Source: a virus
Taxonomy: Duplodnaviria; Heunggongvirae; Uroviricota; Caudoviricetes
Direction: 5' to 3' (one strand)
Virus record (IMG/VR): IMGVR_UViG_2695420863_000013
Length of the DNA: 13,420 bases
Under the pieces are notes generated by a model. The model did not search any database, was not told the DNA's origin, and worked only from the letters and a program-made list of their open reading frames with translations. Positions within the stretch are counted from its first letter, which is position 1. Each line of letters begins with the position of its first letter. The translations under genes were made by a program, and so were the position numbers. Below, piece after piece: positions 1-13,373 of this stretch.

Positions 1-116
1 GTAATGGCAACCGGTCCGCCGTATGGCTGCCAGCCCTCTTTCAGTTTGTGTGTCAGCTTTTCCGCAAGGTCTGACGGCGACGCCGCCCTGACAACATCAT
101 AATGTTTAATCGACAT
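1..116 (-). CDS. Hypothetical protein, N-terminal fragment (gene continues beyond the left edge of the window)
   Basis: ATG at 116..114 preceded by GGGAGA Shine-Dalgarno 8 nt upstream; open frame reads MSIKHYDVVRAASPSDLAEKLTHKLKEGWQPYGGPVAI to the window edge. No family assigned. Confidence 0.4.
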   Translation of the reverse strand, partial: MSIKHYDVVRAASPSDLAEKLTHKLKEGWQPYGGPVAI

Positions 117-202
117 CGAATTTCTCCCGTGTAGAGGAACAGAGTTAAAAAGCCGGAAGCGGAATCAAATCACAGGATGACCATCTGCCAGTGGCTGGTC
201 GT

Positions 203-229
203 AAAAAAAAGGCCGCGCCATGCGCAGCC
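203..229 (-). terminator. Rho-independent terminator (GC-rich hairpin followed by T8 on minus strand)
   Basis: Minus strand reads GGCTGCGC-ATG-GCGCGGCC followed by TTTTTTTT (plus-strand A8 at 203-210). Lies downstream of the TerB-like gene and small ORF. Confidence 0.6.
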
Positions 230-430
230 GAAAATAAAGGGATAACGATGATAGTTTGAGAAAAACAGAAATAACACTTTTGTGGCAAAGCATGGTGCCG
301 GGTGCCTCCCGGTGAATTCAGTATCAGCACCTGAATCCGCGATTACCCCATATTCCTTCTTGCTGATTGCCCCACCGCACAGGGGGATTCACCATGCAGA
401 AGTGTTTTTAATAAACAGCAAACAAAAAAA

Positions 431-544
431 TCAAGCATTATGCAGGCTGTTTCTTTTTATCACCGGCCACAGCAATACCATAATGCCGCAGACCAGCACC
501 CCATCCGCCAGCACCGACATGATTCTGCTGGTGAAATCCACCAT
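431..544 (-). CDS. Possible small hydrophobic protein (37 aa, one predicted transmembrane segment)
   Basis: ATG at 544 to TGA at 431; translation MVDFTSRIMSVLADGVLVCGIMVLLWPVIKRNSLHNA. Below the size cutoff of the ORF track. No convincing Shine-Dalgarno; sits between the TerB-like gene and the terminator. Confidence 0.25.
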   Translation of the reverse strand: MVDFTSRIMSVLADGVLVCGIMVLLWPVIKRNSLHNA

Positions 545-593
545 CACCACCAGAAACAGCAGGAGTGCAGCCACAGTCAGGCGCAGTTTTACC

Positions 594-1027
594 GTCACAG
601 GTAATTCTCCAGACGAAGACCCAGAACACCGGCAATCTCTTCCAGCACCTTGCGCTCTTCCGGCTCAATTTCGCCGTCTGCCTCCGCAATGGCCACCGCC
701 ACATCCAGCACATCTTCCGCTTCACGCGTATCGTGTTTCACATCCTCGATCTCACGTAACGCCGCACGACGACCAGTTTTAAAGTTCGTATCCAGCTGAC
801 CGATAATGGTTGCGCTAATCGCATTAATTTCTGACGTAAACGCGTACAGCGCAGGCTGATTACGCAGTACCTGTTCGATCTTCGCTTTCTAGGAAGCCTC
901 ACATTCACCATCTGCACAGGCCACCAGGTATGCGGCGTTAATCACCACCTGTGCCAGATCGCGTTTTTCAAACTTTCTAATTTCCGTTGCCGCTCTGCGG
1001 GCTTTTTTTACCAAAAATACCAAACAT
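594..1027 (-). pseudogene. TerB-family (tellurite-resistance TerB-like) gene disrupted by a frameshift and an in-frame TAG
   Basis: ATG at 1027 with AAGGAA Shine-Dalgarno gives MFGIFGKKSPQSGNGN then stop. The TerB-like frame continues out of frame (ARRAATEIRKFEKRDLAQVVINAAYLVACADGECEAS-stop-KAKIEQVL...EADGEIEPEERKVLEEIAGVLGLRLENYL). The shift maps to a T7/A7 homopolymer at 1003-1009 and the amber codon to 889-891. Resemblance to TerB is from recalled sequence. Confidence 0.6.
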
Positions 1028-1196
1028 CGTGACGTTCCTTTGGGTGGGTGAGCCAACGCCCGGGAGCGATCTGCCCACAGAGAAAGTCACACTGACCACT
1101 CCATAAGCTCCCCCCGAAAGGCTCTGTGGTTGGTATGCGCCGGGCGTGGTGCGGATACAAAAAAGGTCCGCAAAAGCGAGCGAGGGAAAATAAGTG

Positions 1197-1273
1197 TGGT
1201 GCGTTGTACTGGGTTCGAACCAGTGACCGATTGCTTAGAAGGCAATTGCTCTGTCCGGCTGAGCTAAAAACGC
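1197..1273 (-). tRNA. argO: tRNA-Arg (anticodon TCT), 77 nt with encoded CCA
   Basis: Minus-strand cloverleaf: D stem GCTC/GAGC, anticodon stem ATTGC/GCAAT with loop CTTCTAA, T loop TTCGAAC, 3' CCA. One T-C mismatch in the acceptor stem. Symbol inferred from the ileZ-argN-argO order known in lambdoid/Stx phages. Confidence 0.75.
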
Positions 1274-1286
1274 AGAATACCGATAA

Positions 1287-1363
1287 TGGACCGCCATCGG
1301 AGACTCGAACCCCGCGAAACCAGCTTCGAAGGCTGGCGTTCTATCCCGATGAGCTAATGGCGG
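1287..1363 (-). tRNA. argN: tRNA-Arg (anticodon TCG), 77 nt with encoded CCA
   Basis: Minus-strand cloverleaf: perfect acceptor stem CCGCCAT/ATGGCGG (C1-G72), anticodon stem CCAGC/GCTGG with loop CTTCGAA, T loop TTCGAGT, 3' CCA. One mismatch in the D stem. Symbol assigned by order only. Confidence 0.7.
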
Positions 1364-1370
1364 TATGTGA

Positions 1371-1446
1371 TGGTGGCCCTTGCTGGATTTGAACCAGCGG
1401 CCTGGCGATTATGAGTCGCTCGCTCTCACCACTGAGCTAAAGGGCC
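1371..1446 (-). tRNA. ileZ: tRNA-Ile2 (anticodon CAT, lysidine type), 76 nt with encoded CCA
   Basis: Minus strand reads GGCCCTTTAGCTCAGTGGTGAGAGCGAGCGACTCATAATCGCCAGGCCGCTGGTTCAAATCCAGCAAGGGCCACCA. Near-identical in architecture to E. coli tRNA-Ile2 (ileX/ileY) as recalled; perfect acceptor stem. Confidence 0.85.
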
Positions 1447-1455
1447 GGGCGCAGG

Positions 1456-1484
1456 ATAATAACGTTACGAAATCAATGTTGCAA
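1456..1484 (-). promoter_or_regulatory. Sigma-70 promoter for the tRNA cluster (TTGCAA -17- TATTAT)
   Basis: Minus strand has -35 TTGCAA (1484..1479), a 17-nt spacer, and -10 TATTAT (1461..1456), ending 9 nt upstream of the tRNA-Ile 5' end. Confidence 0.55.
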
Positions 1485-1564
1485 GCATTCAAGAATCACC
1501 TGGTTAAAAATTACCCTTGCTTCCTCCACCAGCGCATTCACCATGTCTATCCGAGATAAGTGGC

Positions 1565-1598
1565 ACAAAAAAACCCGCTTGTGGGCGGGTTTTGTTTG
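1565..1598. terminator. Bidirectional intrinsic terminator just downstream of the Q-like gene (candidate tR'-like late terminator)
   Basis: Hairpin CCCGC-TTGTGG-GCGGG at 1574-1589, flanked by A7 upstream and TTTTGTTTGCTTTT downstream, so U-tracts exist on both strands. Position between Q and the tRNAs matches lambdoid pR'/tR' layout. Confidence 0.6.
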
Positions 1599-1656
1599 CT
1601 TTTGCCATCACGTACAAAATCGGCAAAATATCAGATTTGCATGAAATATATGCCTT

Positions 1657-2346
1657 TCAATCTACTTTTGCAACACTTTGCTTTGAAAATGCCGCCTTTT
1701 GTTTTGAACGCGTTCTCATTACAAACAATAAAGCCTCACTATCCAGTCGGTGAAAAATGTGTTTCATTGCAACCCAGTGACGAGTAAATGTTTTGGACCA
1801 GTTTTTAGTTGTCACTCCCACCAGTAATGCCAGCTCCTTGTATTCATAACCTTCCCCACCAAAAAGTTCTGCTTTTACTGCCTGCGCCGCCAGCCAGATT
1901 AATTTTTTCAGGCGTTCCTGCGTTTTCCCTGCAATTTTTCTGGTACCGGATTGAGTATTAAATTCATTCCACGCCCACTGTGTTATCGCGATCTGATATT
2001 CCCAACAAATACTCCCGCTGTAACACCACAACAACCAGGCTTTATGATGTTCTTCAAGAGACAGAACAGCCCGCCGCCACGATGATGTCGAAAACTCAAT
2101 CGGACTGACCAGAGGAATTGACGTCCCCTTCGCCAGCGATTGCTTTCCCGGGATTGGGGGATTATCCCGCGTTATCATTTTTCCAGTCACTTCATCGCGG
2201 TACCGGATTTTTTTACGCCTGTAACGCCCTGTATCGAACATGGCATTCTCCTGCCAGGCTTCAAGCTGACCTTTTGTTGCCCCACTCAAATCAGCGGTGG
2301 CGATAATGAGCTGCTCACGCACAAACTGTAAATACTGGTTATTCAT
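1657..2346 (-). CDS. Q-like late antiterminator (by position and loose family resemblance)
   Basis: Probable start ATG at 2346, overlapping the rusA TGA stop as ATGA (the track ORF begins 2 codons earlier at GTG 2352). Immediately upstream of a terminator and the tRNA cluster and downstream of rusA, the canonical Q position. No zinc finger of the lambda-Q type was seen, so the family is uncertain. Confidence 0.55.
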   Translation of the reverse strand: MNNQYLQFVREQLIIATADLSGATKGQLEAWQENAMFDTGRYRRKKIRYRDEVTGKMITRDNPPIPGKQSLAKGTSIPLVSPIEFSTSSWRRAVLSLEEHHKAWLLWCYSGSICWEYQIAITQWAWNEFNTQSGTRKIAGKTQERLKKLIWLAAQAVKAELFGGEGYEYKELALLVGVTTKNWSKTFTRHWVAMKHIFHRLDSEALLFVMRTRSKQKAAFSKQSVAKVD

Positions 2347-2708
2347 GCGCACCCCAGTTCTGTGATTTTTATCCCCAACCGCCCACCAGGAACAAGCTGA
2401 CCGCGCACAATATTGATTTCATCAAACTGCTCGTCGTCTATGAGCAGCCCCGCATGCGTCAGTGCATCCAGTGGTGCCTTCAGGATATTGTCCAGGTCAC
2501 GACGGCGCTTATCCGGTGGCTCTGCAATAATTTTTATTGCCAGCCTTCCGGACAGGTTTAATTTCAACCGCTGCTGGCGAACAATTAGTGCCACATCACG
2601 GCGATAACGCTCACCGACTTTTGATACAAAATATGTGCTGCCACGACGTCGCCAGTAAGTATTCACCGTTGGCGGGTAAGGCAAAACAAATTCTATGCGT
2701 TCAGTCAT
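2343..2708 (-). CDS. rusA: Holliday junction resolvase RusA
   Basis: 121-aa protein MTERIEFVLPYPPTVNTYWRRRG...PDKRRRDLDNILKAPLDALTHAGLLIDDEQ...GGRLGIKITELG. The RRRDLDN motif and overall pattern match RusA of DLP12 as recalled. Start abuts the upstream gene's stop. Confidence 0.85.
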   Translation of the reverse strand: MTERIEFVLPYPPTVNTYWRRRGSTYFVSKVGERYRRDVALIVRQQRLKLNLSGRLAIKIIAEPPDKRRRDLDNILKAPLDALTHAGLLIDDEQFDEINIVRGQLVPGGRLGIKITELGCA

Positions 2709-3764
2709 TTATGCTTTCCACTTCAGGACGCCCGAATTTCTCGCGTGCATTAAAAAACGAATCAGCAACAACAGCTGGCTGCCGTGTTTTTCTTCAAAAT
2801 CTTTTACCCCGGCGTGCAGTTCGTTATGACATTTACGGCACAGCGGAATAACAAACAAATCGTCAGCCTTCGTTCCCATCCCTCCTAGTCCATGACCAAT
2901 GATGTGATGCGGATCATCTGCCTGATTGTCACACGTCATGCATTTCTGCGTTTTTACCCAGCGCGTGTATACGGGCATCTCTTCCCGTTGTGGTTTCTGG
3001 CGCTGGAGATACTGAGCCGGTGACTCCGGATCAACGGCAATGCTTACCACCGTCTTTTCCTGTGGCGGGTTTTGCTGGTGGGCGTGAGGCATCGGCGCAA
3101 GATTTTTTGTGCGCTGCTTCAGTATGCTGGTGGCGGTCTGCTCTCCCGGCACGATGTCGCTTTCACGGTACATTGAGCGGATTTTTTCCGCACGCAACCC
3201 CAGCGAACGACGTAATACCGCTTCCGGTAGCGCGTCCGCCACCTGATTGCGGACCGCCCACCAGGATAATTCAGCCAGCGATAATTCCCGTTCCTGCGAG
3301 CCATTCATTGCATGGCGTATGACGTCAATCATCCATGCAGACAGGTTTTGGTGAGCAAGTTGCCCGAGTGATTCGGAGGTCTGGTCGCGCAGCTGGTTGT
3401 CGCAGTGCCAGCACAACACCATTGCGCCGGTACCATAACGGTGAATGACGGTTTCACTGTGGTGATAATCGCCGTGTGGCCACTGGCAGGATTTAACATG
3501 GCGCAGTAACCAATCAGACAATGCGCCAGCGCCACCAGCAGCACGAATCACTCGTTCGTCGCTGAAAAATGGCAGTAATGATTTATCCTCCGCCAGCGGC
3601 TGGCGAACGGCAGGAACGACCCCGGACGGCAGATTACGCATGCTTTTCGGTTCCGGCTCCACCAGTACCCGGGTATTGTGGAATACCGGCATGGATTCAC
3701 GGCCCGGCTTAACGATCACCAGCCCGAGTTCCGGTACCAGAACAGGTCGAAGTAATACCCGCAC
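2709..3764 (-). CDS. DUF968-type phage protein (YdfU-like) with a C-terminal HNH nuclease motif
   Basis: 351-aa ORF with GTG start at 3764 preceded by GGAGGT Shine-Dalgarno. C-terminus has CMTCDNQ...HHIIGH...CRKCHNELH (CxxC...HH...CxxCHxxxH, HNH-like). Same position as ydfU in the Qin prophage (quuQ-ydfU-rem-hokD), as recalled. Confidence 0.6.
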   Translation of the reverse strand: MRVLLRPVLVPELGLVIVKPGRESMPVFHNTRVLVEPEPKSMRNLPSGVVPAVRQPLAEDKSLLPFFSDERVIRAAGGAGALSDWLLRHVKSCQWPHGDYHHSETVIHRYGTGAMVLCWHCDNQLRDQTSESLGQLAHQNLSAWMIDVIRHAMNGSQERELSLAELSWWAVRNQVADALPEAVLRRSLGLRAEKIRSMYRESDIVPGEQTATSILKQRTKNLAPMPHAHQQNPPQEKTVVSIAVDPESPAQYLQRQKPQREEMPVYTRWVKTQKCMTCDNQADDPHHIIGHGLGGMGTKADDLFVIPLCRKCHNELHAGVKDFEEKHGSQLLLLIRFLMHARNSGVLKWKA

Positions 3765-4080
3765 GTTACCTCCAGATGCGTTGCTGGAATGTGCGGGACG
3801 GACGCGGTGGGCGTTCGGAGTAAGGGAGTCTGACTGAGATTATCCAGTGACGATAGTCGAGACTAAGAGCTTTCTTAACCTCGTATCCACGCCTGCGGTA
3901 ACACTGAATTATCCATTCAGCCTGCTCTTCAGTGCATGGAGGATGCTGGAACCAGTCTGATGTGAATGCGTGAAAACGCCGTCCGCACCTGCTGGCAAAG
4001 ACAGCAGAATCATTAGAATTGTGTAATTTGGTATCGTGCGCCATCGGTTGTCTCTGCTGGCGCAGCAGGTGCCAGTTGTT
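3067..4080. repeat. Direct repeat copy A of a ~1-kb segment (5' two-thirds of DUF968 gene + small basic protein gene)
   Basis: Sequence from 3067 is identical or near-identical to 4413 onward (ctggtgggcgtgaggcatcggcgcaagattttttgtgcgctgcttcag...); homology continues with increasing divergence into the small-protein genes. Confidence 0.7.
3766..4044 (-). CDS. Small basic phage protein (Rem-like position), copy 1 of a paralogous pair
   Basis: Start placed at internal ATG 4044 (MAHDTKLHNSNDSAVFASRCGRR...) by alignment with the paralog at 5103..5375; the longer track ORF (to 4173) would run through the hok terminator. Stop lies 1 nt before the DUF968 start. Confidence 0.5.
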   Translation of the reverse strand: MAHDTKLHNSNDSAVFASRCGRRFHAFTSDWFQHPPCTEEQAEWIIQCYRRRGYEVKKALSLDYRHWIISVRLPYSERPPRPSRTFQQRIWR

Positions 4081-4116
4081 CAGGCTGGCGTGCGAATTGT
4101 AAACCAGAATGCCAGG

Positions 4117-4143
4117 AAAAAACAAAACCCGCCGAAGCGGGTT
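4117..4143 (-). terminator. Intrinsic terminator downstream of hok copy 1 (copy 1 of a repeated hairpin)
   Basis: Hairpin AACCCGC-CGAA-GCGGGTT (4126-4143) followed on the minus strand by TTTTGTTTTTT. Confidence 0.6.
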
Positions 4144-4211
4144 AAGTGCGGGTGCATTGAGGATGCCTGACACATCAGAGGTGGCGAGGGATTTCTCCCC
4201 CGCCTGGTCTC

Positions 4212-4367
4212 TTACTCCTCAGGTTCGTAAGCTGTGAAGACAGCGACCTCCGTCTGGCCGGTTCGGATTCGTACCTCGCAGAGGTCTTTCCTCGTTACCA
4301 GTGCCGTCACTATGACGGTTAAACAGATGACGATCAGGACGATTAACATCGCCTTTTGCTGCTTCAT
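4212..4367 (-). CDS. hok: Hok-family type I toxin (HokD/RelF-like), copy 1
   Basis: 51-aa MKQQKAMLIVLIVICLTVIVTALVTRKDLCEVRIRTGQTEVAVFTAYEPEE; matches HokD/RelF as recalled except one A-to-V change. Start set at the MKQQ methionine within the longer track ORF. Confidence 0.85.
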   Translation of the reverse strand: MKQQKAMLIVLIVICLTVIVTALVTRKDLCEVRIRTGQTEVAVFTAYEPEE

Positions 4368-4402
4368 AGCCTGCTTCTCCTTGCCTTTCGGCACGTAAGA
4401 GG

Positions 4403-5101
4403 CTAACCTAACTGGTGGGCGTGAGGCATCGGCGCAAGATTTTTTGTGCGCTGCTTCAGTATGCTGGTGGCGGTCTGCTCTCCCGGCACGATGTCGCTTT
4501 CACGGTACATTGAGCGGATTTTTTCCGCACGCAACCCCAGCGAACGACGTAATACCGCTTCCGGTAGCGCGTCCGCCACCTGATTGCGGACCGCCCACCA
4601 GGATAATTCAGCCAGAGATAATTCACGCTCCTGCGTACCGCTTATTGCGTGACCGATGACGTCAATCATCCATGCTGACAGGTTTTGATGAGCAAGTTGC
4701 CCGAGTGATTCGGAGGTCTGGTCACGCAACTGGTTGTCGCAGTGCCAGCACAACACCATTGCGCCGGTACCATAACGGTGAATGACGGTTTCGCTGTGAT
4801 GATAATCGCCGTGTGGCCACTGGCAGGATTTAATATGGCGCAACAGCCAGTCAGACAATGCACCAGCACCACCAGCAGCACGAATCACCCGTGCGTTACT
4901 GAAAAACGGCAGCAATGTTTTGTCTTCCACCAGCGGCTGGCGAACGGCAGGAACGACCCCGGACGGCAGATTACGCATGCTTTTCGGTTCCGGCTCCACC
5001 AGTACCCGGGTATTGTGGAATACCGGCATGGATTCACGGCCCGGCTTAACGATCACCAGCCCGAGTTCCGGTACCAGAACAGGTCGAAGTAATACCCGCA
5101 C
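4403..5101 (-). CDS. Truncated DUF968 paralog (232 aa; lacks the C-terminal HNH region), probable gene remnant
   Basis: N-terminal ~230 aa nearly identical to the 2709..3764 protein, then ends at TAG 4403-4405 exactly where homology to the hok cassette begins. GTG start at 5101 abuts the upstream gene's stop. Confidence 0.6.
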   Translation of the reverse strand: MRVLLRPVLVPELGLVIVKPGRESMPVFHNTRVLVEPEPKSMRNLPSGVVPAVRQPLVEDKTLLPFFSNARVIRAAGGAGALSDWLLRHIKSCQWPHGDYHHSETVIHRYGTGAMVLCWHCDNQLRDQTSESLGQLAHQNLSAWMIDVIGHAISGTQERELSLAELSWWAVRNQVADALPEAVLRRSLGLRAEKIRSMYRESDIVPGEQTATSILKQRTKNLAPMPHAHQLG

Positions 5102-5420
5102 GTTACCTCCAGATGCGTTGCTGGAATGTGCGGGACGGACGCGGTGGGCGTTCGGAATAAGGGAGTCTGACGTAGATTATCCAGTGACGATAATCGAGGG
5201 TGAGGGCTTTCCTAAACTCATATCCACGTCTGCGGTAGTTATGAATCAGCCATTCGGCCTGTTCTTCAGTACAGGGATCGTGCTGATACCAGTCATATTT
5301 GAATGCGTGAGAACGCCACCCGTGCCTGCTGGCAAAGGCAGAATCAGAATTGCGAAATTTGAAATTATGCGCCATTGTCATCTCCAATGGCGCTGCAGGT
5401 TGCCAGTTGTTCAGGCTGGC
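4413..5420. repeat. Direct repeat copy B of the same ~1-kb segment
   Basis: Pairs with 3067-4080; junction with the hok cassette at 4404-4412. Confidence 0.7.
5103..5375 (-). CDS. Small basic phage protein (Rem-like position), copy 2 of a paralogous pair
   Basis: ATG at 5375 (MAHNFKFRNSDSAFASRHGWRS...) with GGAG 6 nt upstream; C-terminal half closely matches copy 1 (…LDYRHWII.VRLPYSERPPRPSRTFQQRIWR). Confidence 0.5.
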   Translation of the reverse strand: MAHNFKFRNSDSAFASRHGWRSHAFKYDWYQHDPCTEEQAEWLIHNYRRRGYEFRKALTLDYRHWIIYVRLPYSERPPRPSRTFQQRIWR

Positions 5421-5434
5421 TCACGTATTATAAC

Positions 5435-5608
5435 TTATTCCCGAACTACCTTGAAACCGAGTCTTTCCAAGTATTCAATGAATGCCTCAACAGATAACAC
5501 TACATGATCATCAGGAATTAACGCTGTGTAGGTAATACCCCCATTCTCAACGCGCACAGCATAGAGGCCATCTTCACTAAAAATTTCACGTAATTCTTCG
5601 ATTTTCAT
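5435..5608 (-). CDS. Hypothetical small protein (57 aa)
   Basis: ATG at 5608 with AAGGA Shine-Dalgarno 8 nt upstream; MKIEELREIFSEDGLYAVRVENGGITYTALIPDDHVVLSVEAFIEYLERLGFKVVRE. No family recognised. Confidence 0.45.
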   Translation of the reverse strand: MKIEELREIFSEDGLYAVRVENGGITYTALIPDDHVVLSVEAFIEYLERLGFKVVRE

Positions 5609-5691
5609 CAACAGAATCCTTCCAGATAAATAGCACTCCCCCTGTTCGGGGTCCATCCCTCTTCTCCCTGCGCGCTACTTAAGTATTTTTG

Positions 5692-5721
5692 ATTCTATTC
5701 TGGCACCGTCCAAAACTTCAA
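5692..5721 (-). promoter_or_regulatory. Candidate sigma-70 promoter for the 57-aa ORF (TTGAAG -18- TAGAAT)
   Basis: Minus strand has -35 TTGAAG (5721..5716), an 18-nt spacer, and -10 TAGAAT (5697..5692), just downstream of the module terminator. Confidence 0.3.
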
Positions 5722-5729
5722 ACACGTTG

Positions 5730-5761
5730 AAAATAAAAACAAAAAACCCGCCGAAGCGGGT
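5730..5761 (-). terminator. Intrinsic terminator downstream of the HTH-peptidase gene (copy 2 of a repeated hairpin)
   Basis: Hairpin ACCCGC-CGAA-GCGGGT (5746-5761) followed on the minus strand by TTTTTTGTTTTTATTTT; starts 5 nt after the 5766 stop. Confidence 0.7.
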
Positions 5762-5765
5762 ATAC

Positions 5766-6869
5766 TCAAACAATCTGGAAAATATTTCTTGGATTTGTAA
5801 TAGGTCTGTTGATGGAGAACAACTCACGAATTAAATCTTGGCTCAAGCCAGTTTTCATAAGAATTCTTAGCCAGGTTGCATCATCCAGCATTTCAATCGC
5901 CTCGGCCAGCATGCCGGGTTCTTCAGGGCGCAAAAGTTCATCACCAGGTTCAACTCTCGTATACCCTCTGGAATTAAGATGCATATAGCCAGTTCTTGCC
6001 TGTTCCTGGGTCAATAAGCCTAATGCGCTGGCTCGATAAATACACATTTTAAGGCTGATTTTCCATCTAAGTTTAAATTCAACCAGAGCATTCCAGTCGA
6101 ATTGCTTACCTCGTATTCGTGGAAATTCTTTAATGAAAGATAACCTGGGAACTAATAAGGCGCTCGAAAAGTGATCGGCTTGTGATTCCGTAAGTTTATC
6201 ACCTGTCGTTATGCCCTCATGCATTACTAAATGCCCTAATTCATGACCTAAATCAGAGCGAAATCTACATATGCTTTTTTTAACATTGTTCCTGATGATA
6301 ACAGGCCTGTTATTGTGAACAGTAAAAGCATCAACACGATCATCGACTCCCGTAACATGCGCAACGATTACCCCTAAACTCTCCGCCAATTTAACCATTG
6401 ATGATATAGGGCCAAGACCTAAATTCCAGGCACGGCGACAATCTTCTGCCACTCGCTCAATATCATTCGGAGTAAGTAATTCAGCCCCTGGGTGCTCCGG
6501 TATGTTAACGTCAGGAAATTCGATTTCACCTTCAACAGCAGAAATTATAATATTAAGAATCTCAGCCCTGGCCAATACACTATTAGTCAGCGTTTGAGTC
6601 CTGGACTTCTTACTCCGAAAATGGCAGACATCACTTTCCAGAGCGTATTTTCGTTCAGTAAAAAGAAAACTGGACTTAATCATAAGCGCTGAAGATATTA
6701 ACTCAAGACATTGCTCCGATGGCCTGCACCCCTTCTCCAGTTTGCTAACGAATTGCTTTGTCTTGCCAATTTTTTCGGCTAACTCTTCACAAGAAAGCCC
6801 AACAGCCATTCTCGCTAGTTTGAGCTTATCACCCCGATACTCAGTGAAGTTATTCACCTGATGTTCCAT
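5766..6869 (-). CDS. XRE-family HTH fused to an ImmA/IrrE-type (COG2856, Peptidase_M78-like) zinc metallopeptidase
   Basis: N-terminal HTH (LKLARMAVGLSCEELAEKIGKTKQFVSKLEKG). HEXXH zinc motif in RSDLGHELGHLVMHEG, and the downstream signature ESQADHFSSALLVP typical of COG2856. Start probably ATG 6869 (track gives GTG 6872); overlaps the upstream gene by about 20 nt. AT-rich relative to flanks. Confidence 0.75.
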   Translation of the reverse strand: MEHQVNNFTEYRGDKLKLARMAVGLSCEELAEKIGKTKQFVSKLEKGCRPSEQCLELISSALMIKSSFLFTERKYALESDVCHFRSKKSRTQTLTNSVLARAEILNIIISAVEGEIEFPDVNIPEHPGAELLTPNDIERVAEDCRRAWNLGLGPISSMVKLAESLGVIVAHVTGVDDRVDAFTVHNNRPVIIRNNVKKSICRFRSDLGHELGHLVMHEGITTGDKLTESQADHFSSALLVPRLSFIKEFPRIRGKQFDWNALVEFKLRWKISLKMCIYRASALGLLTQEQARTGYMHLNSRGYTRVEPGDELLRPEEPGMLAEAIEMLDDATWLRILMKTGLSQDLIRELFSINRPITNPRNIFQIV

Positions 6870-7500
6870 CACTGCTCACATCCAAATCTTTATCCTTCGT
6901 ACGCCGACGAAGAGGCACCTTATTAATCTCCGCTTCGTCAGGGAGTGTGTTATAATCAAGAGGCATAAGCGGCATCGATGCTGTAGATTGATGAGAAACT
7001 ATACTAATCTGAGCACCATAAGTATTAAATCCAACAAGAGCTACCTCCCAACGAGGCAGTGTGGACTCTAATTCACCATCGCCCTCTTCGGATAAAAAAG
7101 GCTCAGCTATGACTCGCCATGTAATATCTTGCTCAGCCTCAACATCACCAAACAATGAGAGCTGCTCATACTCTACTTTATTTCGACGCAGACGATGTTT
7201 CTTTTTGGGGTTATTAATGCAATCTTTGGTAAATTGTAGCGGAACTTTATTTAAAGCAACTACATAGTCCAACCCCTTGGAAATCATCTCAAGGCCAGGA
7301 ATTGCATCTTCATTTTGAATAAGATGATTTCTGACCCAATCATAAGCCCTTACACCTTCAGACCAGTTGCTGTCTAATGCGTGCTTATGATAGTACAGCT
7401 GCTCAAGTACGTTAGCGATCTCCGCCAACAAGTGGCGAACATAGTTTTCAGCAAGATAAGGTTGAAATTCCCAACAAGGAGCTAACTGATTTTCATTCAT
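6850..7500 (-). CDS. Hypothetical 216-aa protein, first gene of the two-gene module (candidate effector/toxin)
   Basis: ATG at 7500 (MNENQLAPCWEFQPYLAENYVRHLL...). No recognisable motif; has a basic patch KKKHRLRRNK and an acidic C-terminus. AT-rich. Translationally overlaps the HTH-peptidase gene. Confidence 0.55.
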   Translation of the reverse strand: MNENQLAPCWEFQPYLAENYVRHLLAEIANVLEQLYYHKHALDSNWSEGVRAYDWVRNHLIQNEDAIPGLEMISKGLDYVVALNKVPLQFTKDCINNPKKKHRLRRNKVEYEQLSLFGDVEAEQDITWRVIAEPFLSEEGDGELESTLPRWEVALVGFNTYGAQISIVSHQSTASMPLMPLDYNTLPDEAEINKVPLRRRTKDKDLDVSSDGTSGE

Positions 7501-7535
7501 TTCAAGTTTCGCTTTTTTTAGAATTCGTAAACCAC

Positions 7536-7564
7536 ATATTTTCGCATTTTTCTATTTTTGTCAA
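7536..7564 (-). promoter_or_regulatory. Candidate promoter for the two-gene module (perfect -35 TTGACA, weak -10)
   Basis: Minus strand has TTGACA (7564..7559), a 17-nt spacer, and AAATAT (7541..7536), about 35 nt upstream of the 7500 start. The -10 is poor, so the call is tentative. Confidence 0.3.
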
Positions 7565-7573
7565 CCAGACTAA

Positions 7574-7597
7574 TGCAAAAACCCGCCGAAGCGGGTT
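7574..7597 (-). terminator. Intrinsic terminator downstream of hok copy 2 (copy 3 of a repeated hairpin)
   Basis: Hairpin AACCCGC-CGAA-GCGGGTT (7580-7597) with a short U-tract (5 T) on the minus strand. Confidence 0.5.
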
Positions 7598-7858
7598 AAG
7601 TGCGGGTGCGTTGAGGATGCCTGGCACATCAGAGGTGGCGGGAGATTACTCCCCCGCCGGGTCTCTTACTCCTCAGGTTCGTAAGCTGTGAAGACAGCGA
7701 CCTCCGTCTGGCCGGTTCGGATTCGTACCTCGCAGAGGTCTTTCCTCGTTACCAGTGCCGTCACAATGACGGTTAAACAGATGACGATCAGGGCGATTAA
7801 CATCGCCTTTTGCTGCTTCATAGCCTGCTTCCCCTTGCCTTTCGGCACGTAAGAGGCT
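7580..7858. repeat. hok cassette repeat (terminator hairpin + hok + ~40 nt upstream), second copy; first copy at 4126-4404
   Basis: About 279 bp nearly identical between 4126-4404 and 7580-7858, including the hairpin and the whole hok ORF; homology ends at ggctaacct on the upstream side in both copies. Confidence 0.75.
7666..7821 (-). CDS. hok: Hok-family type I toxin (HokD/RelF-like), copy 2
   Basis: 51-aa MKQQKAMLIALIVICLTVIVTALVTRKDLCEVRIRTGQTEVAVFTAYEPEE, identical to HokD/RelF as recalled. Start set at the MKQQ methionine with a GGGGAAG Shine-Dalgarno-like element upstream. Confidence 0.85.
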   Translation of the reverse strand: MKQQKAMLIALIVICLTVIVTALVTRKDLCEVRIRTGQTEVAVFTAYEPEE

Positions 7859-8058
7859 AACCTACATTTGTGAGACATAGATTGGGCCTCAGATTAATGT
7901 TAAGCGTCTTGCAGGACGCGAAATGTTAACTGGGGCTTTTCTCTATCTGCCTTTCAGTGTTCATGCCTGAGACAGATAGCCTCAAGCACCCGCAGCCATT
8001 CTACTTAACTCACGTCACCTCGCCAATATGAAATCAATCAGAAAGGTGATCCATAAAA

Positions 8059-8745
8059 TCACTCCTTCTCTTCTTTTCCGTAGTGGAGTTGGCCAATTTT
8101 GATAAGAGGGCGTCCCTGAGATTTGCGGTGTAGATTGGTATCGCGCAGAGAATACACACAGCCACAATATTCCTGCTGATAGAATTTTTCGCGCTTGCTG
8201 ATTTCAATCATACGGGACGAGCCGCCCTGCTTGCGCCAGTTATAATCCCAGTACACCATACCCGGATAATGCGCAACAGCTCGCCGCCCACACTCGTTAA
8301 CCTGCTGCATATTTTTCCAGCGTGAAATGCCCAGTGAACTGCTGATCACACTGAAACCATTTTCAGCAGCGTACAACGCTGTCCGCTCAAAACGCATGTC
8401 AAAACACATGGTACAACGGATCCCCCTCTCAGGCTCCCATTCCATTCCTTTGGCACGTTCAAACCAGTTGTCGGTGTCGTAATCAGCATCGATAAACGGC
8501 ACGCCGTGTTGTTCAGCAAAGCGAATATTTTCATCCTTACGAATTAAATACTCTTTCTGAGGATGAATGTTCGGGTTGTAGAAAAAGATGGTGTAGTCGA
8601 TTCCCGAGGCCTGAAGCGCCTCCATCACTTCACCGGAACATGGAGCACAGCAAGAGTGCAGTAGTAGTTTGTTTGCCCCGTTTGGGAGCTCCAATTTAGG
8701 CCGTTTGAAATCAGCAATAGTCATAAATATTTTTATTGGGGTCAT
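8059..8745 (-). CDS. DUF208/QueH-like protein (putative epoxyqueuosine reductase family)
   Basis: 228-aa ORF with an N-terminal [11 protein letters not shown] motif and a C-terminal [11 protein letters not shown] motif, which I recall as characteristic of QueH. No good Shine-Dalgarno at either candidate ATG (8745 or 8724). Confidence 0.55.
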
Positions 8746-8898
8746 GAAAATAGCACAGAGTGTAGCATCAGAGCAGGGCTATCGGGAATATATGTCTAAA
8801 TCTGGTAATATCTGGTTTTGACGCAAAGCGGACAACCACGCTGGCTCTACCCTGCGCCATGAAAATGTCAATTCACATCTGAACTAATGCTCTTTAAT

Positions 8899-9324
8899 CT
8901 AGTAACGTCTAAAATACCTAACATTTCCTTGATAAAATGCCAGTACACGCTGCATAGCTTCGCTCTTCCGGCACTCGCGACAGATTATATTCAGGCGCCT
9001 GTCGTAGCGGCGTATTTCGCCGTCTGGTAACGACCAGATAAGGTCCGGATCAACCACTGCAGGTTTCTTCACCTTTGCCCTTGAGAGTTTTTTGCGAGCA
9101 TTTTGCCAGTCCTTACGCGCCTGTTCAGACGGGAATAACCCGTAACCAGAGTTGTATACATCGCCACTGGCAACCAGCTCTCTGGCGAGAACACTCATCA
9201 GATATCTTGTCGCACCTGTCTTGGCTTCCAGTTGCCGCAACGTCTCGCGACCGCTCAGACGTACAAGTTCAACAACCTGCCCTTTAATTTTTTCCCGCTC
9301 TTCTTGTGTAAATACTTTTGCCAT
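8899..9324 (-). CDS. Hypothetical phage protein (141 aa)
   Basis: ATG at 9324 (MAKVFTQEEREKIKGQVVELVRLSG...) with GGAGG 7 nt upstream (track ORF starts at TTG 9339). No family recognised. Confidence 0.5.
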   Translation of the reverse strand: MAKVFTQEEREKIKGQVVELVRLSGRETLRQLEAKTGATRYLMSVLARELVASGDVYNSGYGLFPSEQARKDWQNARKKLSRAKVKKPAVVDPDLIWSLPDGEIRRYDRRLNIICRECRKSEAMQRVLAFYQGNVRYFRRY

Positions 9325-9339
9325 AAGCGCCTCCGGCAA

Positions 9340-10110
9340 TCACTTTTCCGATACAACACGGCGGGAAGAATCAGTAATCTGTCGAACAATATCCCGGTGC
9401 TTGTTCAGCTCCCGCAGCGCGGCGCAGACTCGCTCCCACTTCTGAACATCACTTTTCGCCCTGCGCAGCGCCAGGTTTGCCCTGCGAAGGGACGGAAAAA
9501 TCAGCTCATCTGCTTGCGTTTCGGTAAACGATGGCAACGGCTGCACAATGTCCGCCACAGTTTCTGTTTTAATTTCTTCCTGTGTTGCGGCTTCCCGGAC
9601 TGGTAACGCAGCACCTGCTGGCTGAGGAAAGGCCTTACCATCACTTTCCGTTACCAGCGCGGCTTTCGGCTCTGCTGGTAAATTATCGCCCGGCATGCAG
9701 TAACGAAATTTACCGTTCTGATTAACGCGTGCCAGCCGCCCCGTTGCGGTTACCACCGCCAGCGTGGAAGCAACCTTGCGAGTACTGACACCGAACTTAC
9801 CCGCCAGTTCCTCACACGTTTTAGCCCCATCCTGACCGATAAACTCAATCATCATGTCTGCGGTAACTTTTTGTTCGACCTCCCCGGTCAGCATATCCTG
9901 TGCTTCAGATTTTACTGGCCGCTCTTCGGTTACCCGGGATTCACCTTCGCCAGCCAGAAACCAGGTGTGACCAGTTTTATCAACGACGCCTTTTCTTTTG
10001 AGTTCCCACAGCTCGTTGAGAACCTCTTCACGACTGATATCAAGTCGCGCGGCCAGTTCTACCGATGTGGCTTTTCCCATTGCTTTCAGTGCGTCAAATA
10101 CGGTTTCCAT
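9340..10110 (-). CDS. Hypothetical phage protein (256 aa) with two winged-helix-like segments
   Basis: ATG at 10110 ([43 protein letters not shown]...) with GGAGG 9 nt upstream (track ORF starts at TTG 10128). A second similar segment is [32 protein letters not shown]. Family unassigned. Confidence 0.5.
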
Positions 10111-10143
10111 TAAAATTTCCTCCGACAAAATCGTTTCTCAGAT

Positions 10144-10809
10144 TCAAATAAAACCAGCTGCCTTCCGGCGTTCGTATTCCTGTTTCAGCCGTTCAATTGG
10201 CGTTGGCCCTTGCGGGTGTTTCGCCCCTTCCAGTTGTCGTCGCACTGGCGGAACACTCATCCCGTTACCAACATGCTTTGCCCATTTCGTCAGTTGCCGT
10301 TCCGCAAGTCGTTTTAACTCACCCTGCGTCATCTGGCGCTCAATCCCTCTGGTACGCATTTCGAGGCAGATGTGGTACAGCACAGGCTGAGGCCACGGAT
10401 ATTTGTCGCTTCCGTCATATCGCCAGGACTCATCACGCCAGCGGCGGTACTCCTCCATCACAGCATCCACCGTCAGGCCAAATGGATTGGCCCCGCTTTC
10501 TGAAATCAGCGCCACAAACTCAGCCAGGTCCGGAGGCCATGTTTCACCCGCCCGGCAGCGGTCCATGCACTGGCGGCAGACCTGTCGGATTTGCTGCTCA
10601 GTCATCGCGCCAATCTGTGCAATCCAGAGCTTCGAAGGTGCGGCCCCGTTCTTCTGGGTCCAGCGGTTCGAATAAACCTCCCCCATGAGTTCCCACAGCT
10701 TCCAGACCGTTTCCGTCGCTGATAAATCCGTTTTCACGTTCCCACTGCTCACGTGCTGCCCGAATTTCCTGAACTGCCCGTGATGCGGTGCCACCTGGTG
10801 CTGCTGCAT
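10144..10809 (-). CDS. Replication protein P-like (lambda P family helicase loader)
   Basis: C-terminal region (…DKYPWPQPVLYHICLEMRTRGIERQMTQGELKRLAERQL…PPV…) resembles lambda P as recalled. ATG 10809 has a GGGGG Shine-Dalgarno; this start lies 211 nt inside the upstream O-like ORF, so the true start is uncertain. Confidence 0.65.
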   Translation of the reverse strand: MQQHQVAPHHGQFRKFGQHVSSGNVKTDLSATETVWKLWELMGEVYSNRWTQKNGAAPSKLWIAQIGAMTEQQIRQVCRQCMDRCRAGETWPPDLAEFVALISESGANPFGLTVDAVMEEYRRWRDESWRYDGSDKYPWPQPVLYHICLEMRTRGIERQMTQGELKRLAERQLTKWAKHVGNGMSVPPVRRQLEGAKHPQGPTPIERLKQEYERRKAAGFI

Positions 10810-11644
10810 GGTTTACCCCCTTGCTGACTGGCTTAACCTGCGCCCTGACGTGATTTACGTGACGGGCGAATTTCTGCTCCCACTGAACCTGCGTGAAAAC
10901 TTTCCCCTCCGCTGCCCAGTAGTCCCGGAAAGCGGCAAGTTCAGCAGGTGTAAATTCCGGCTCCGGCAAAGCCATCCCCCACAACGCAGCCCGTCGTCGA
11001 AAATCCGGCGACGGATGCCAGTCATCGACCATCGGAAATTTCCCGATGGGTTCGCTCAGTCCATCCAGGGATGCAGGTTCTGCTGCCTGCAACGGCGTAC
11101 CACTCGACTCACTGGTCGGAGCACTCTCGCGCACGTGCGCGTTATGTGTGGGGTTTAATTCTTTATCTGTATCTTTATCTGTCGTGACTCGTCGTGACAT
11201 GTCGTGACATATGCGTGACTCGTCGTGACACCCCTCATTCTGTTTTCGTAATTTTTCCCTCTCGCGCTGCGCTCTCTTGCGCTCTGCCGGGGATTTCGCG
11301 GTTTGTGAAACGTTGCCATTGTCCTCTTTCAGTACCTGGCGTTTTTCCCATCCGGTGATTAAATCTCCATCAAGTACCCGCCCCTGCATTGCCTGTAAAA
11401 TTGAATCAATTACTTCTTCCGTCACATCAAGCGCACTTGCTAAATCTTCCGTCGTGACATCAATGTGACCACGTAGTGACACGCCGTGACATGTCGTGAC
11501 ATTTCGTGACGCGCTCACCAGAAGGTGGATATACACTGCCATCACTGTTGCAATTGGCTGCCCTGACACCCTGGCAATTGTTCGCCACTTAGGGTCATTT
11601 GGCATGTCATGCCATAATCTGAGCCAGGCGTTAGCCATACTCAC
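10598..11644 (-). CDS. Replication initiator (O-like position) containing internal iteron arrays
   Basis: 348-aa ORF directly upstream of the P-like gene and downstream of the YdaT-like gene. GAGGTG Shine-Dalgarno with GTG 11644 or ATG 11638 as start. Two clusters of periodic repeats lie inside it. The low-complexity C-terminal tail overlaps the P-like gene and may not be real coding sequence. Confidence 0.55.
   Translation of the reverse strand: MSMANAWLRLWHDMPNDPKWRTIARVSGQPIATVMAVYIHLLVSASRNVTTCHGVSLRGHIDVTTEDLASALDVTEEVIDSILQAMQGRVLDGDLITGWEKRQVLKEDNGNVSQTAKSPAERKRAQREREKLRKQNEGCHDESRICHDMSRRVTTDKDTDKELNPTHNAHVRESAPTSESSGTPLQAAEPASLDGLSEPIGKFPMVDDWHPSPDFRRRAALWGMALPEPEFTPAELAAFRDYWAAEGKVFTQVQWEQKFARHVNHVRAQVKPVSKGVNHAAAPGGTASRAVQEIRAAREQWERENGFISDGNGLEAVGTHGGGLFEPLDPEERGRTFEALDCTDWRDD
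11150..11232. repeat. Candidate replication origin: AT-rich stretch with two CTTTATCTGT repeats, then five GTCGTGAC-type direct repeats at about 10-bp spacing
   Basis: GTCGTGAC (or a one-base variant) begins at 11181, 11191, 11201, 11213 and 11222, preceded by ttaattctttatctgtatctttatctgt. Located mid-gene in the O-like ORF, as ori-lambda is in O. Confidence 0.5.
11449..11510. repeat. Second array of six CGTGAC/GTGAC repeats at 10-11 bp spacing (iteron-like)
   Basis: GTGAC cores end at 11458, 11469, 11480, 11490, 11500 and 11510, in the 5' part of the O-like ORF. Confidence 0.45.
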
Positions 11645-11709
11645 CTCTTCTGATACCGAATCTTTTTACTCACAAATTGCCGGAAGTGATCCGGTATGAA
11701 TATTGCGAG

Positions 11710-12135
11710 TCAATGCACAGCCACAATATTTCCTGCAGGGCCACCACGATTCATCTGGTTGAAACCAGCGATCGCCACTGCGACAAAATCATCAGCGTCT
11801 CTCACCAGTCGTTCCCGCGTCTCCACCAGCTCCCGAAAATAAGCTGAACTGTGGCTGCGCATTCGGGCCACCAGCAGAGGCGGCATTGCTTTTTCGATCG
11901 CTGGTAACAACGCCTGAATTTTTTTAACCGCATCAGGAGTGTCTTTCTCCACCCAGCGGAAAATTTTCTGGGTATTGCGAGCCAGGGCTTCCGGATGGCT
12001 GTCGTCATATAATTCCGGGAACGTCATACCAAGCTCAAAATAAGCCCGGGTTATTTCAGCTGCCGGAACTTTTTCACCGTCCGGATGCGCCCAGGCATTC
12101 ATCGCCATGCGGATGTGCTCATGCCTGATTTTCAT
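11710..12135 (-). CDS. YdaT-like protein (CII-position protein of Rac-type prophages)
   Basis: 141-aa MKIRHEHIRMAMNAW...KIQALLPAIEKAMPP...NIVAVH. Start and end pattern and length match Rac YdaT as recalled. GGAG Shine-Dalgarno 9 nt upstream; overlaps the upstream HTH gene by 17 nt. Confidence 0.6.
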   Translation of the reverse strand: MKIRHEHIRMAMNAWAHPDGEKVPAAEITRAYFELGMTFPELYDDSHPEALARNTQKIFRWVEKDTPDAVKKIQALLPAIEKAMPPLLVARMRSHSSAYFRELVETRERLVRDADDFVAVAIAGFNQMNRGGPAGNIVAVH

Positions 12136-12394
12136 GAATCAACTCCGATGCATTTGGTGTGTTAGCCTTGAATCCAACAGGTAAGCCGTCGGTTGGATTC
12201 GGGTAAATATCAGGCCGGAGTTCATGAGGTGTAACCTCGAAATTCGTTACTTCAGCAACACGTAATGCTTTTTCAGGGCTGAATCTTTCATAGCCCCCCA
12301 GCACTCGACTTACATGCACCTGAGATAAACCCGTTAGCTTCCCAAACTGTAGCTGGGTGATATGTTTCTCTTTTAAATAGTCTCTTAAGTTCAT
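12119..12394 (-). CDS. Cro/YdaS-like HTH regulator
   Basis: ATG at 12394 (MNLRDYLKEKHITQLQFGKLTGLSQVHVSRVLGG...) with GAAGG Shine-Dalgarno (track ORF starts at TTG 12400). HTH motif; first gene of the leftward early operon, divergent from the repressor. Confidence 0.65.
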   Translation of the reverse strand: MNLRDYLKEKHITQLQFGKLTGLSQVHVSRVLGGYERFSPEKALRVAEVTNFEVTPHELRPDIYPNPTDGLPVGFKANTPNASELIHENQA

Positions 12395-12501
12395 AGCCAA
12401 CCTTCTACGTTATGCCTCGAGCAAATATTAGCCCCGCTAATTTTAAAGATCAATAGCCAGACTATCTTTGATAATATTGGTAAAACAAATAAACTCTATG
12501 T
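12395..12501. promoter_or_regulatory. Divergent immunity-switch region (operators and promoters between the Cro-like gene and the repressor)
   Basis: 107-bp AT-rich intergenic region between divergent HTH genes; contains the palindrome ATTAGC-CCC-GCTAAT (12427-12441) and a TAATAT -10-like element upstream of the repressor start. Confidence 0.5.
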
Positions 12502-12963
12502 ATGAAAAAAACACGCGAAGTGATTGCAACTCCAGAAGCGAGCAAGAATTTAAAAGCCGCATGGAATGCAAGAAAAAAAGAGCTGAAGCTGACTCAAGAG
12601 CTGGCGGCTGAGTTGTTGGGATTCGAATCTCAAGGCACCGTTAGCCAGTATCTGAACGGCAAGATACCGGTAAATACCGACGCTGCGCTAAAATTTGCGG
12701 CTCTGTTAAAGGTAAAACCAGAGGACATTCGAGAAGACCTTAAAGACTTAATGAATTATGTAAGATCATCAGATACTTATGATGATAACTTTTCAGGCAA
12801 AGGATGGAGGCTGGTCAATGAAGAACAGGCAGAGTTACTTAACCTCTTCGAGATTCTACCTGCGTCAGAAAAAGCCAAACTCCTTAACCAGCTACGTGGA
12901 CTAAACAAGCTCTACGAGGAAGCCTTCGAGAACATGCTGGCACTAAAGAAACGTAACCAGTAG
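12502..12963 (+). CDS. Prophage repressor, RacR-like (XRE-type HTH)
   Basis: 153-aa MKKTREVIATPEASKNLKAAWNARKKELKLTQELAAELLGFESQGTVSQYLNGKIPV...; HTH near the N-terminus; divergent from the Cro/YdaS-like gene; followed by a strong terminator. Confidence 0.65.
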   Translation: MKKTREVIATPEASKNLKAAWNARKKELKLTQELAAELLGFESQGTVSQYLNGKIPVNTDAALKFAALLKVKPEDIREDLKDLMNYVRSSDTYDDNFSGKGWRLVNEEQAELLNLFEILPASEKAKLLNQLRGLNKLYEEAFENMLALKKRNQ

Positions 12964-12989
12964 CCACCGCTCACTACCCCATCCACAAC

Positions 12990-13019
12990 AAAAAAACCGA
13001 CGTCTTAGTCGGTTTTTTT
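12990..13019. terminator. Bidirectional intrinsic terminator after the repressor gene
   Basis: A6 - AACCGAC-GTCTTA-GTCGGTT - T7, a perfect 7-bp stem flanked by A and T tracts. Confidence 0.7.
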
Positions 13020-13116
13020 GTGCCATAACTTCTGCAAATCAGCTGTATAACTAATATTTTTCCCTTGAAAAAACATTTACATAGTTACCAAAACAAAAAT
13101 ATCATACGCCATACTG

Positions 13117-13145
13117 TTGACTTAAAATATCCGCGTTACTAATAT
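13117..13145 (+). promoter_or_regulatory. Strong sigma-70 promoter (TTGACT -17- TAATAT), candidate pL-like early promoter
   Basis: -35 TTGACT at 13117-13122, 17-nt spacer, -10 TAATAT at 13140-13145; about 70 nt upstream of the 51-aa ORF. Confidence 0.55.
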
Positions 13146-13216
13146 TTCTATCAAGAACAGCACGGCGCTGTAGGTTTTAGTTCCGCCACCCGGCGTTAAG
13201 GGGAAATGAGGTCAGC

Positions 13217-13372
13217 ATGGATACTATCGAGCTTGGCAACAACGAATCTCTGGTGTACGGCGTGTTTCCCAACCAGGACGGCACATTCACCGCGATGACG
13301 TATACCAAAAGCAAAACGTTTAAAACCGAAAATGGTGCCCGTCGCTGGCTGGAAAGAAACTCAGGTGAGTGA
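13217..13372 (+). CDS. Small protein (51 aa), first gene of the rightward operon beyond the repressor (YdaF/YdaG-like position)
   Basis: ATG 13217 with GAGG 5 nt upstream; MDTIELGNNESLVYGVFPNQDGTFTAMTYTKSKTFKTENGARRWLERNSGE; TGA at 13370-13372. Below the ORF-track size cutoff. Confidence 0.5.
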   Translation: MDTIELGNNESLVYGVFPNQDGTFTAMTYTKSKTFKTENGARRWLERNSGE

Positions 13373-13373
13373 T

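Follow-up and report, generated by a model that had tools for sequence, protein, structure and literature searches.

In the Qin prophage of Escherichia coli (E. coli) K-12, the genes relB, relE, hokD (relF), rem, ydfU and quuQ follow one another in this order. The mosaic joints of lambdoid phages are said, in the model of Hendrix and Juhala, to be formed by illegitimate recombination, and exchange with defective prophages reportedly proceeds through relaxed homologous recombination, as Martinsohn in 2008 and De Paepe in 2014 are said to have described. Joints that have become established usually lie at gene boundaries, after selection. In this study, a Caudoviricetes virus record of 13,420 nucleotides (nt) was analyzed (IMGVR_UViG_2695420863_000013; the whole stretch is hereafter called the window). 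Between positions 2709 and 5420, a module made of a small basic protein gene and ydfU, which encodes a DUF968/HNH protein, is present twice, and the second ydfU copy is truncated and fused to a hok toxin cassette that is itself cut at its 5' end. We lean towards the view that this is an ordinary recombination scar, in which two common types of E. coli lambda-like prophages were joined out of register, and that it is a real and very recent product whose leftovers are probably non-functional.

All genes of the region lie on the minus strand, and the gene order runs from high to low coordinates. The window was compared with itself by BLAST; a preliminary description made from the sequence had proposed a dot plot of 2700-5450 against itself. 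The results showed two direct repeats, R1 (3075-4089) and R2 (4412-5420), with 91.0% identity over 1,016 nt (4 gaps, E = 0). They are arranged head-to-tail with a spacing of 1,337 nt and a single novel joint. R1 holds the small-protein gene and ydfU codons 1-230. The twofold presence of the module, which had been claimed at the outset, is therefore confirmed in the sequence, far beyond chance. The identity between the copies is uneven, reaching 94.9% in the ydfU part and 82.8% in the small-protein part at the DNA level. The two small basic proteins, of 92 amino acids (aa; 3766-4044) and 90 aa (5103-5375), are 75% identical, in line with the early remark that they are more diverged than the neighboring ydfU copies. 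Both belong to phrog_1212, a family of unknown function.

In a published description (PMC4118853), DUF968 proteins consist of a DNA-binding domain resembling Orf, to which an HNH motif of the zinc-finger kind is fused. In the full-length YdfU-like protein of the window (2709-3764, 351 aa), an N-terminal region is followed by the DUF968 domain, and a zinc-finger nuclease motif of the HNH type stands at the C-terminal end. Pfam gave a DUF968 match at residues 160-343 (2.8e-63), which spans positions 1-169 of the 171-position profile, and an HNHc_6 match at residues 266-327; in PHROG the protein was assigned to phrog_96, "HNH endonuclease" (3e-166). With the nearly full profile and the CxxC...HH...CxxCH motif, it is a DUF968/YdfU protein of the HNH type (His-Me finger). 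The truncated copy, ydfU', was listed as an open reading frame (ORF) of 232 aa at 4403-5101. It is made of 229 YdfU residues followed by LG and a stop; after residue 230, the short frame ends two codons past the breakpoint. As had been noticed from the letters, the two proteins are nearly the same at their N-termini (220 of 229 residues, 96.1%), and they diverge at residue 231. The claim that the second copy lacks the HNH motif also held, since only positions 1-61 of the 171-position DUF968 profile were matched by Pfam and no HNHc_6 match was obtained. Because the nuclease half is gone and the DUF968 profile is cut at 61/171, the ydfU' fragment is probably non-functional. Exact look-ups of the 232-aa product gave no match, but they also missed the source contig that encodes it (gene 8320-9018).

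The self-comparison also revealed a second hok cassette, which the preliminary description had not mentioned. The cassette next to ydfU' (4124-4410) is 96.9% identical over 287 nt to 7578-7864. In this report the two cassettes are labeled hokA (7578-8026) and hokB (4124-4410); the labels are unrelated to the K-12 genes hokA and hokB. According to Rfam, the promoter and terminator scan and the motif searches, hokA is a complete hok/sok locus on the minus strand, with toxin ORF, full leader, promoter and terminator. A promoter-like site (7998-8026) lies just upstream of the 5' end of a 172-nt leader (7816-7991), and it is followed by the Hok ORF (7666-7821), an fbi-like element (7604-7616) and a terminator (7580-7597). 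The leader matched Rfam RF01794 with 120.5 bits (E = 1.4e-27), the sole gathering-score match to this model in the window. The 5' sequence GGGUGCUUGAGG (7980-7991) is complementary to the 3' element at 7604-7616, a tac/fbi pairing of the kind known from plasmid R1.

hokB, also on the minus strand, has kept only the 3' part of such a locus: 44-45 nt of leader, a Hok ORF of 51 aa (4212-4367), an fbi-like element (4150-4162) and the terminator hairpin (4126-4143). Its peptide is a Hok/Gef toxin (Pfam HOK_GEF, 3.9e-23, residues 6-47) and differs from that of hokA by one substitution, A10V. The idea that the truncated ydfU is joined to a hok cassette therefore needs the addition that the cassette is truncated too. 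No RF01794 match was found by Rfam for hokB, and the alignment covered only the last 44 nt of the leader. In the same alignment, hokB had neither the mok start nor the target and gene of Sok; the in-frame upstream ATG (7876-7878) is present in hokA only. The tac motif GGGTGCTTGAGG was found in the window at 7980-7991 only, and the fbi-like element of hokB has no partner. The promoter-like site upstream of hokA had no equivalent at hokB. In the scan upstream of hokB, which gave 2 promoter-like sites against 0.9 expected from shuffled sequences, none was seen within 200 nt, and only a weak 9-of-12 match was placed inside ydfU' (4799-4826). Judged from these missing parts, hokB would be transcribed solely by read-through of upstream phage transcription, and control by Sok would be impossible.

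The sequence at the joint was then aligned with both parental prophage types, which are described below. The ydfU homology reaches to 4412 and the hok homology starts at 4410, with the single base 4411 between them, so that the second copy does end where the hok cassette begins, as had been stated. On the minus strand the window reads CACGCCCACCAG-T-TAGGTTAGCCTC, or in shorter form CCCACCAG-T-TAGGTTAG. Both parental ydfU genes continue from CCACCAG into CAAAACCCG, and the ydfU break falls between CCCACCAG and CAAAAC. The hok leader of one parental type (P2) runs from GGCAAATC into TAGGTTAGCC, and here the break falls between CAAATC and TAGGTTAG. No sequence is shared between the parents at 4410/4412, and the join is therefore non-homologous rather than a homologous, linker-mediated exchange. 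A microhomology was considered and rejected: CAAA occurs in ydfU after the break and in the hok leader before the break, which are the wrong sides, and it is absent from the product. The junction base is T on the minus strand, at a position where both reference prophages have C. Hok leaders that read T-TAGGTTAGCC exist, since TTAGGTTAGCCTCTTACGTGCC was found in 14 viral contigs of IMG/VR, and no contig was found in which the ydfU sequence is followed by T. It is thus possible that the join is blunt and that 4411 comes from the hok leader.

Two prophage lineages account for the two arms. The window from 1 to 4410 aligned without a break to the prophage of strain Z1323HEC0108 (P2 type), and 4412-13420 aligned without gaps to the prophage of strain MSB1_7C (P1 type), the break being exactly at 4410/4412. 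The P1 type is an ompW-site prophage with the order cI, YdaS/T, O, P, DUF1627, DUF977, QueH, hok/sok, RosmerTA, Rem, small protein, YdfU and onward; in MSB1_7C the genes are annotated as cI, YdaS/T, O, P, DUF1627, DUF977, QueH, hokD, a 216-aa protein, a helix-turn-helix (HTH) protein, the small protein, DUF968, RusA and Q. The P2 type has hok/sok, small protein, YdfU, RusA, Q, three tRNA genes, TerB and onward, annotated in Z1323HEC0108 as a SEC-C protein, hokD, small protein, DUF968, RusA, Q, tRNAs and TerB. The 90-aa small protein of the window is the P1 allele (a 273-nt coding sequence annotated in MSB1_7C), and the 92-aa protein is the P2 allele (279 nt, annotated in Z1323HEC0108). Each of the two single-copy arrangements can be found annotated in complete genomes; a coverage of at least 80% was reached for the left arm in 540 complete genomes and for the right arm in 133. 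Single-copy parents of the P1 type were seen in MSB1_7C, N10, VR50 and the "PPompW" phage records, and those of the P2 type in Z1323HEC0108 and, at about 94%, in O157:H7 prophages. The window arms are 99.98-100% identical to these parents outside a swapped patch; what both parents lack is the ydfU'-hok' joint, the duplication and the swapped 314-nt patch. Strain N10 has its P1-type prophage beside ompW, with 100% identity to window 5638-13420.

Two further observations were made on prophages of this kind. In the N10 sequence (L004, 7733-8946), an IS3-family element cuts the P1-type prophage immediately past the RmrA gene; the rem-to-Q segment is lost and the prophage is joined to terminase genes, which is another private rearrangement at the same spot. 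Several records of about 90 kb (LC567818, LC567820, LC567824 and others) contain an Stx2a-converting phage together with a "PPompW" phage. These records indicate tandem lambdoid prophages at ompW, from which hybrids could arise by deletion.

The fine structure was resolved by a four-way alignment of both copies and the two reference prophages, followed by BLAST of each segment. From 13420 down to about 4930 the window is of the P1 type, with one mismatch to MSB1_7C at 13093. The next segment, 4412-4929, makes up the 3' portion of the truncated copy and has P2 ("b") alleles: it is identical to Z1323HEC0108 at 518 of 518 positions and 93% identical to MSB1_7C. Of the 38 mismatches between the right arm and MSB1_7C, 37 lie in this segment. 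Positions 3593-4410 are of the P2 type (818/818), and hokB is accordingly 100% identical to Z1323HEC0108 up to 4410. Within the full ydfU copy, a patch at 3279-3592 carries P1 ("a") alleles (314/314 to MSB1_7C, 89% to Z1323HEC0108) and contains all mismatches of the left arm against Z1323HEC0108 but one. The remainder, 1-3278, is again of the P2 type, with that one mismatch at 2929. The ydfU fragment is thus of the same lineage, P2, as the hok cassette fused onto it. Two blocks are the same in both copies and both lineages, one of 227 nt (4930-5156, with its partner at 3593-3819) and one of 128 nt (3151-3278). The three homologous switches of lineage lie in 4930-5156, 3593-3819 and 3151-3278. 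The preliminary description had suggested that paralogous modules from different phages recombined, rather than that a simple duplication took place recently. This stands in that each arm is nearly 100% identical to a different E. coli prophage type, but the lineage boundaries do not follow the repeat copies, as the P2-type stretch 4412-4929 and the P1-type stretch 3279-3592 show.

The mosaic map bears directly on whether a single phage simply duplicated the module recently and the copies then diverged by mutation. Such a history would explain the head-to-tail order, the single novel joint and the 1,337-nt period, and it predicts that ydfU' and the truncated hok are both P2-type at the joint, where they are indeed 100% so. 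However, at each of the about 90 sites where the copies differ, the allele is that of one or the other extant lineage; the differences were imported and did not arise as new mutations. The small-protein halves differ by 17% in DNA, each being identical to a different extant lineage, and the whole part upstream of 4930 is of the P1 type, with one mismatch in 8.5 kb. As a complete explanation, simple duplication is refuted by the imported alleles, and we regard it as scarcely credible; its only remaining place would be at the start of a history with several steps.

For the out-of-register recombination that we favor, the following course can be proposed. One non-homologous join would have fused ydfU codon 230 to a point 44-45 nt upstream of the P2-type hok start codon and thereby duplicated a unit of 1.34 kb. 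Two remnants would have been left: ydfU' without the HNH nuclease domain, and a hok stripped of its promoter, 5' tac element, mok start, and Sok target and gene. Three further lineage switches would have occurred within the identical blocks of 128-227 nt, and because of them the truncated copy would carry P2 alleles and the full copy a 314-nt P1 patch. Three routes can be imagined. In the first, a deletion between tandem P1 and P2 prophages at ompW would connect ydfU codon 230 of one to the hok leader of the other, together with an exchange of patches between the ydfU genes; tandem ompW prophages are on record as a precedent (the Stx2a and "PPompW" records of about 90 kb). The fit is imperfect, since at 4429/3092 and 4487/3150 P2 alleles are found in both copies, where the examined P1 genomes have G or A and T, respectively. 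For the same reason, one illegitimate join combined with a purely reciprocal patch swap was set aside as an incomplete fit. In the second route, a P2-type phage would first undergo the 1.34-kb tandem duplication, followed by a crossover with P1 in the 227-nt block and conversion of the 314-nt patch. The third route would be a single replication event with several template switches.

Because the segments are nearly undiverged from extant prophages, the event was either very recent or artefactual. An assembly artefact, whole or partial, is a serious alternative, to which we give a sizeable chance that stays below even. It supposes that the strain carried separate P1 and P2 prophages, or a P2 prophage with a small real duplication, and that the short-read assembler or scaffolder threaded the contig through the shared ydfU and hok repeats, changing from one copy to the other within identical blocks and perhaps producing the 4410/4412 join as well. 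Several findings favor it and weigh against a real origin. The window is the entire 13,420-bp contig CYFL01000049.1 of a short-read draft (GCA_001285685.1), a setting where repeated prophage modules mis-join. A probe of 301 nt across the joint gave no match covering at least 80% of it in 5,426 complete E. coli genomes; the joint 24-mer ACGCCCACCAGTTAGGTTAGCCTC gave no match in GTDB representative genomes, in IMG/VR or in the JGI metagenomes; and in the phage collection only the single-copy arrangements were found, without the joint. The mosaic 351-aa protein is a singleton, known from one contig among 15 billion proteins, so that both junction and mosaic protein are unique to this contig. No complete genome exceeded 97.2% over 4412-5700 or 97.9% over 2709-4410; the two swapped patches thus belong to this contig alone, their contexts occurring in 0 of the 5,426 genomes, and on the same figures an origin of the patches from unsampled parental variants was considered unlikely. 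All segments have 100% or nearly 100% identity to some extant prophage, and the three homologous switches all fall within the identical blocks. The near-reciprocal swap of "a" and "b" alleles between identical blocks longer than a typical short read is a sign of mis-phasing. The base at 4411 matches neither parent. The identity between the hok leaders of P1 and P2 also ends at position 4410, the base upstream being C, G or T among hok paralogues, and an extension by read consensus would stall there. Finally, a real origin needs two or three separate and very recent events within 2 kb.

Other properties of the contig are harder to reconcile with a mis-assembly. The join lies 58 nt inside the ydfU stretch common to P1 and P2 (window 3017-4089 aligns to MSB1_7C), and its two sides do not overlap; a de Bruijn (k-mer) graph, by reasoning, cannot leave a shared node midway without spanning reads. 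The window contains no N and shows no sign of an unclosed scaffold gap; that base 4411 might be a placeholder set by a scaffolder was considered too. A single contig through a two-copy repeat is also easier to obtain if the "a" and "b" patches occur once each, as assembled. We still hold, with restrained confidence, to a real recombination between the two prophage types.

If the scar is real, it might also have been selected. A ydfU'-hok' operon could supply Hok that is insensitive to Sok under early phage transcription and kill the host on induction or superinfection, or, in another form of the idea, the second small protein and the YdfU N-terminal domain could give a useful dosage. The two small-protein ORFs are intact, as is the Hok ORF; the stop codon of ydfU' is 35 nt upstream of the hok ATG, which makes translational coupling conceivable, and K-12 keeps a comparable relBE-hokD arrangement. 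Against this, only one contig shows the arrangement, compared with thousands of genomes in which both parental modules are present, and for that reason there is no sign of spread or conservation. In the plasmid R1 paradigm, as one preprint outlines it, hok translation is coupled to mok translation; under that outline, the start needed for hok translation is deleted here. The promoter scan and the cut DUF968 profile described above also speak against function. We consider a selected arrangement very improbable. The same low standing is given to a more specific version, in which the contig is correct, a single event, for instance template-switching replication between co-resident prophages (one illegitimate and three homologous switches within 2 kb), produced it very recently, and the ydfU'-hok' unit makes a Sok-blind Hok expressed only on early phage read-through. 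If that were true, ydfU'-hok' might be a host-killing device tied to induction or superinfection.

The rest of the region follows the two parental types. On the P1 arm, the nin region holds QueH, an epoxyqueuosine reductase (8059-8745), directly upstream of the complete hok/sok locus. A pair assigned by PADLOC to the RosmerTA anti-phage system lies between hokA and rem (5766-7500, minus strand). It is composed of an RmrT-like protein of 216 aa (6850-7500; RmrT model, 5e-25) and an RmrA-like HTH/M78-peptidase protein of 368 aa (5766-6872; RmrA model, 6e-105). Direct repeats of the hok terminator hairpin, 20-26 nt long, flank the pair (5736-5761 and 7571-7596), and 5742-5761 is identical to 7577-7596 at 20 of 20 positions. 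In K-12 and the PPompW phages, hok, terminator and rem follow each other without the RmrT/RmrA module. Because of the flanking repeats, the sequence suggests that the defence module was inserted at the hok terminator. Further upstream, within the O-like (DnaT-domain) replication gene, two clusters of GTCGTGAC(A/T)-type repeats spaced by 10 nt (11171-11220 and 11463-11512) look like origin iterons.

On the P2 arm, RusA (2343-2708) and the antiterminator Q (1657-2352) are followed downstream by three minus-strand tRNA genes (1197-1446), namely Arg-tct, Arg-tcg and a tRNA with a CAT anticodon. The last was called Met by ARAGORN, and the corresponding gene in related genomes is annotated as tRNA-Ile. 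A match to the small RNA STnc100 (Rfam, 100.8 bits) was found at 254-426 on the minus strand, downstream of TerB and DUF3927 fragments.

The biological weight of the finding is small, because the genes, both parental arrangements and the process (lambdoid mosaicism, with a leader-less hok as in K-12 hokD) are already known. If the contig is correct, it offers a neat case of an unselected, out-of-register illegitimate join with its duplicated debris retained and with patch exchange between diverged repeats. There is also a methodological lesson: seeming duplications in prophage nin regions of short-read drafts need confirmation at the read level before they are interpreted.

Compared with hok/sok systems, hokA is a full member, with the Rfam leader, promoter, complementary tac and fbi elements and terminator, whereas hokB shares an intact Hok peptide and differs in having just the last 44 nt of the leader, with promoter, tac, mok start and Sok target gone. 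The comparison with Qin, which the preliminary description had recommended, was only partly in agreement. As in Qin, hok is upstream of ydfU and ydfU upstream of Q, and the order hok, small protein, ydfU is kept in the P2 arm; yet rem is missing from that arm and the module is present twice, while Qin has a single copy of each gene. The Qin hok region is 98% identical to the truncated cassette (4118-4381), and Qin ydfU is 85-87% identical. In K-12, rem is located between hok and an unannotated small-protein gene, and rusA is absent. That unannotated ORF, between rem and ydfU (3810-4085 of L005, the K-12 MG1655 sequence; NC_000913.3 ~1644309-1644584), is a homologue of the small basic protein of phrog_1212 (76% over 92 aa, E = 2.6e-46, tblastn). 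The small basic protein itself is not Rem. The Rem homologue of the window is a 73-aa ORF on the minus strand (5435-5656; Pfam PF27490 in the gene table, phrog_340) on the P1 arm just beyond the repeat; it has 90% DNA identity with the region of rem in K-12, and it precedes the other copy of the module. The hokD gene of Qin likewise has no leader, promoter or sok region and stands directly behind another gene, relE. A truncation point shared with K-12 hokD was rejected: K-12 hok is cut 15 nt upstream of the ATG, behind relE, and the window hok 44-45 nt upstream, behind a ydfU fragment. Because the cut points differ, the two truncations are independent.

With respect to lambdoid mosaicism in general, the window resembles the described pattern in that a join that is non-homologous and out of register occurs together with several exchanges between diverged modules, each placed in a short stretch of identity. 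It differs from established joints in that the joint lies inside a gene and the duplicated debris is still present. For this reason, the joint is either unselected and very young, or not real.

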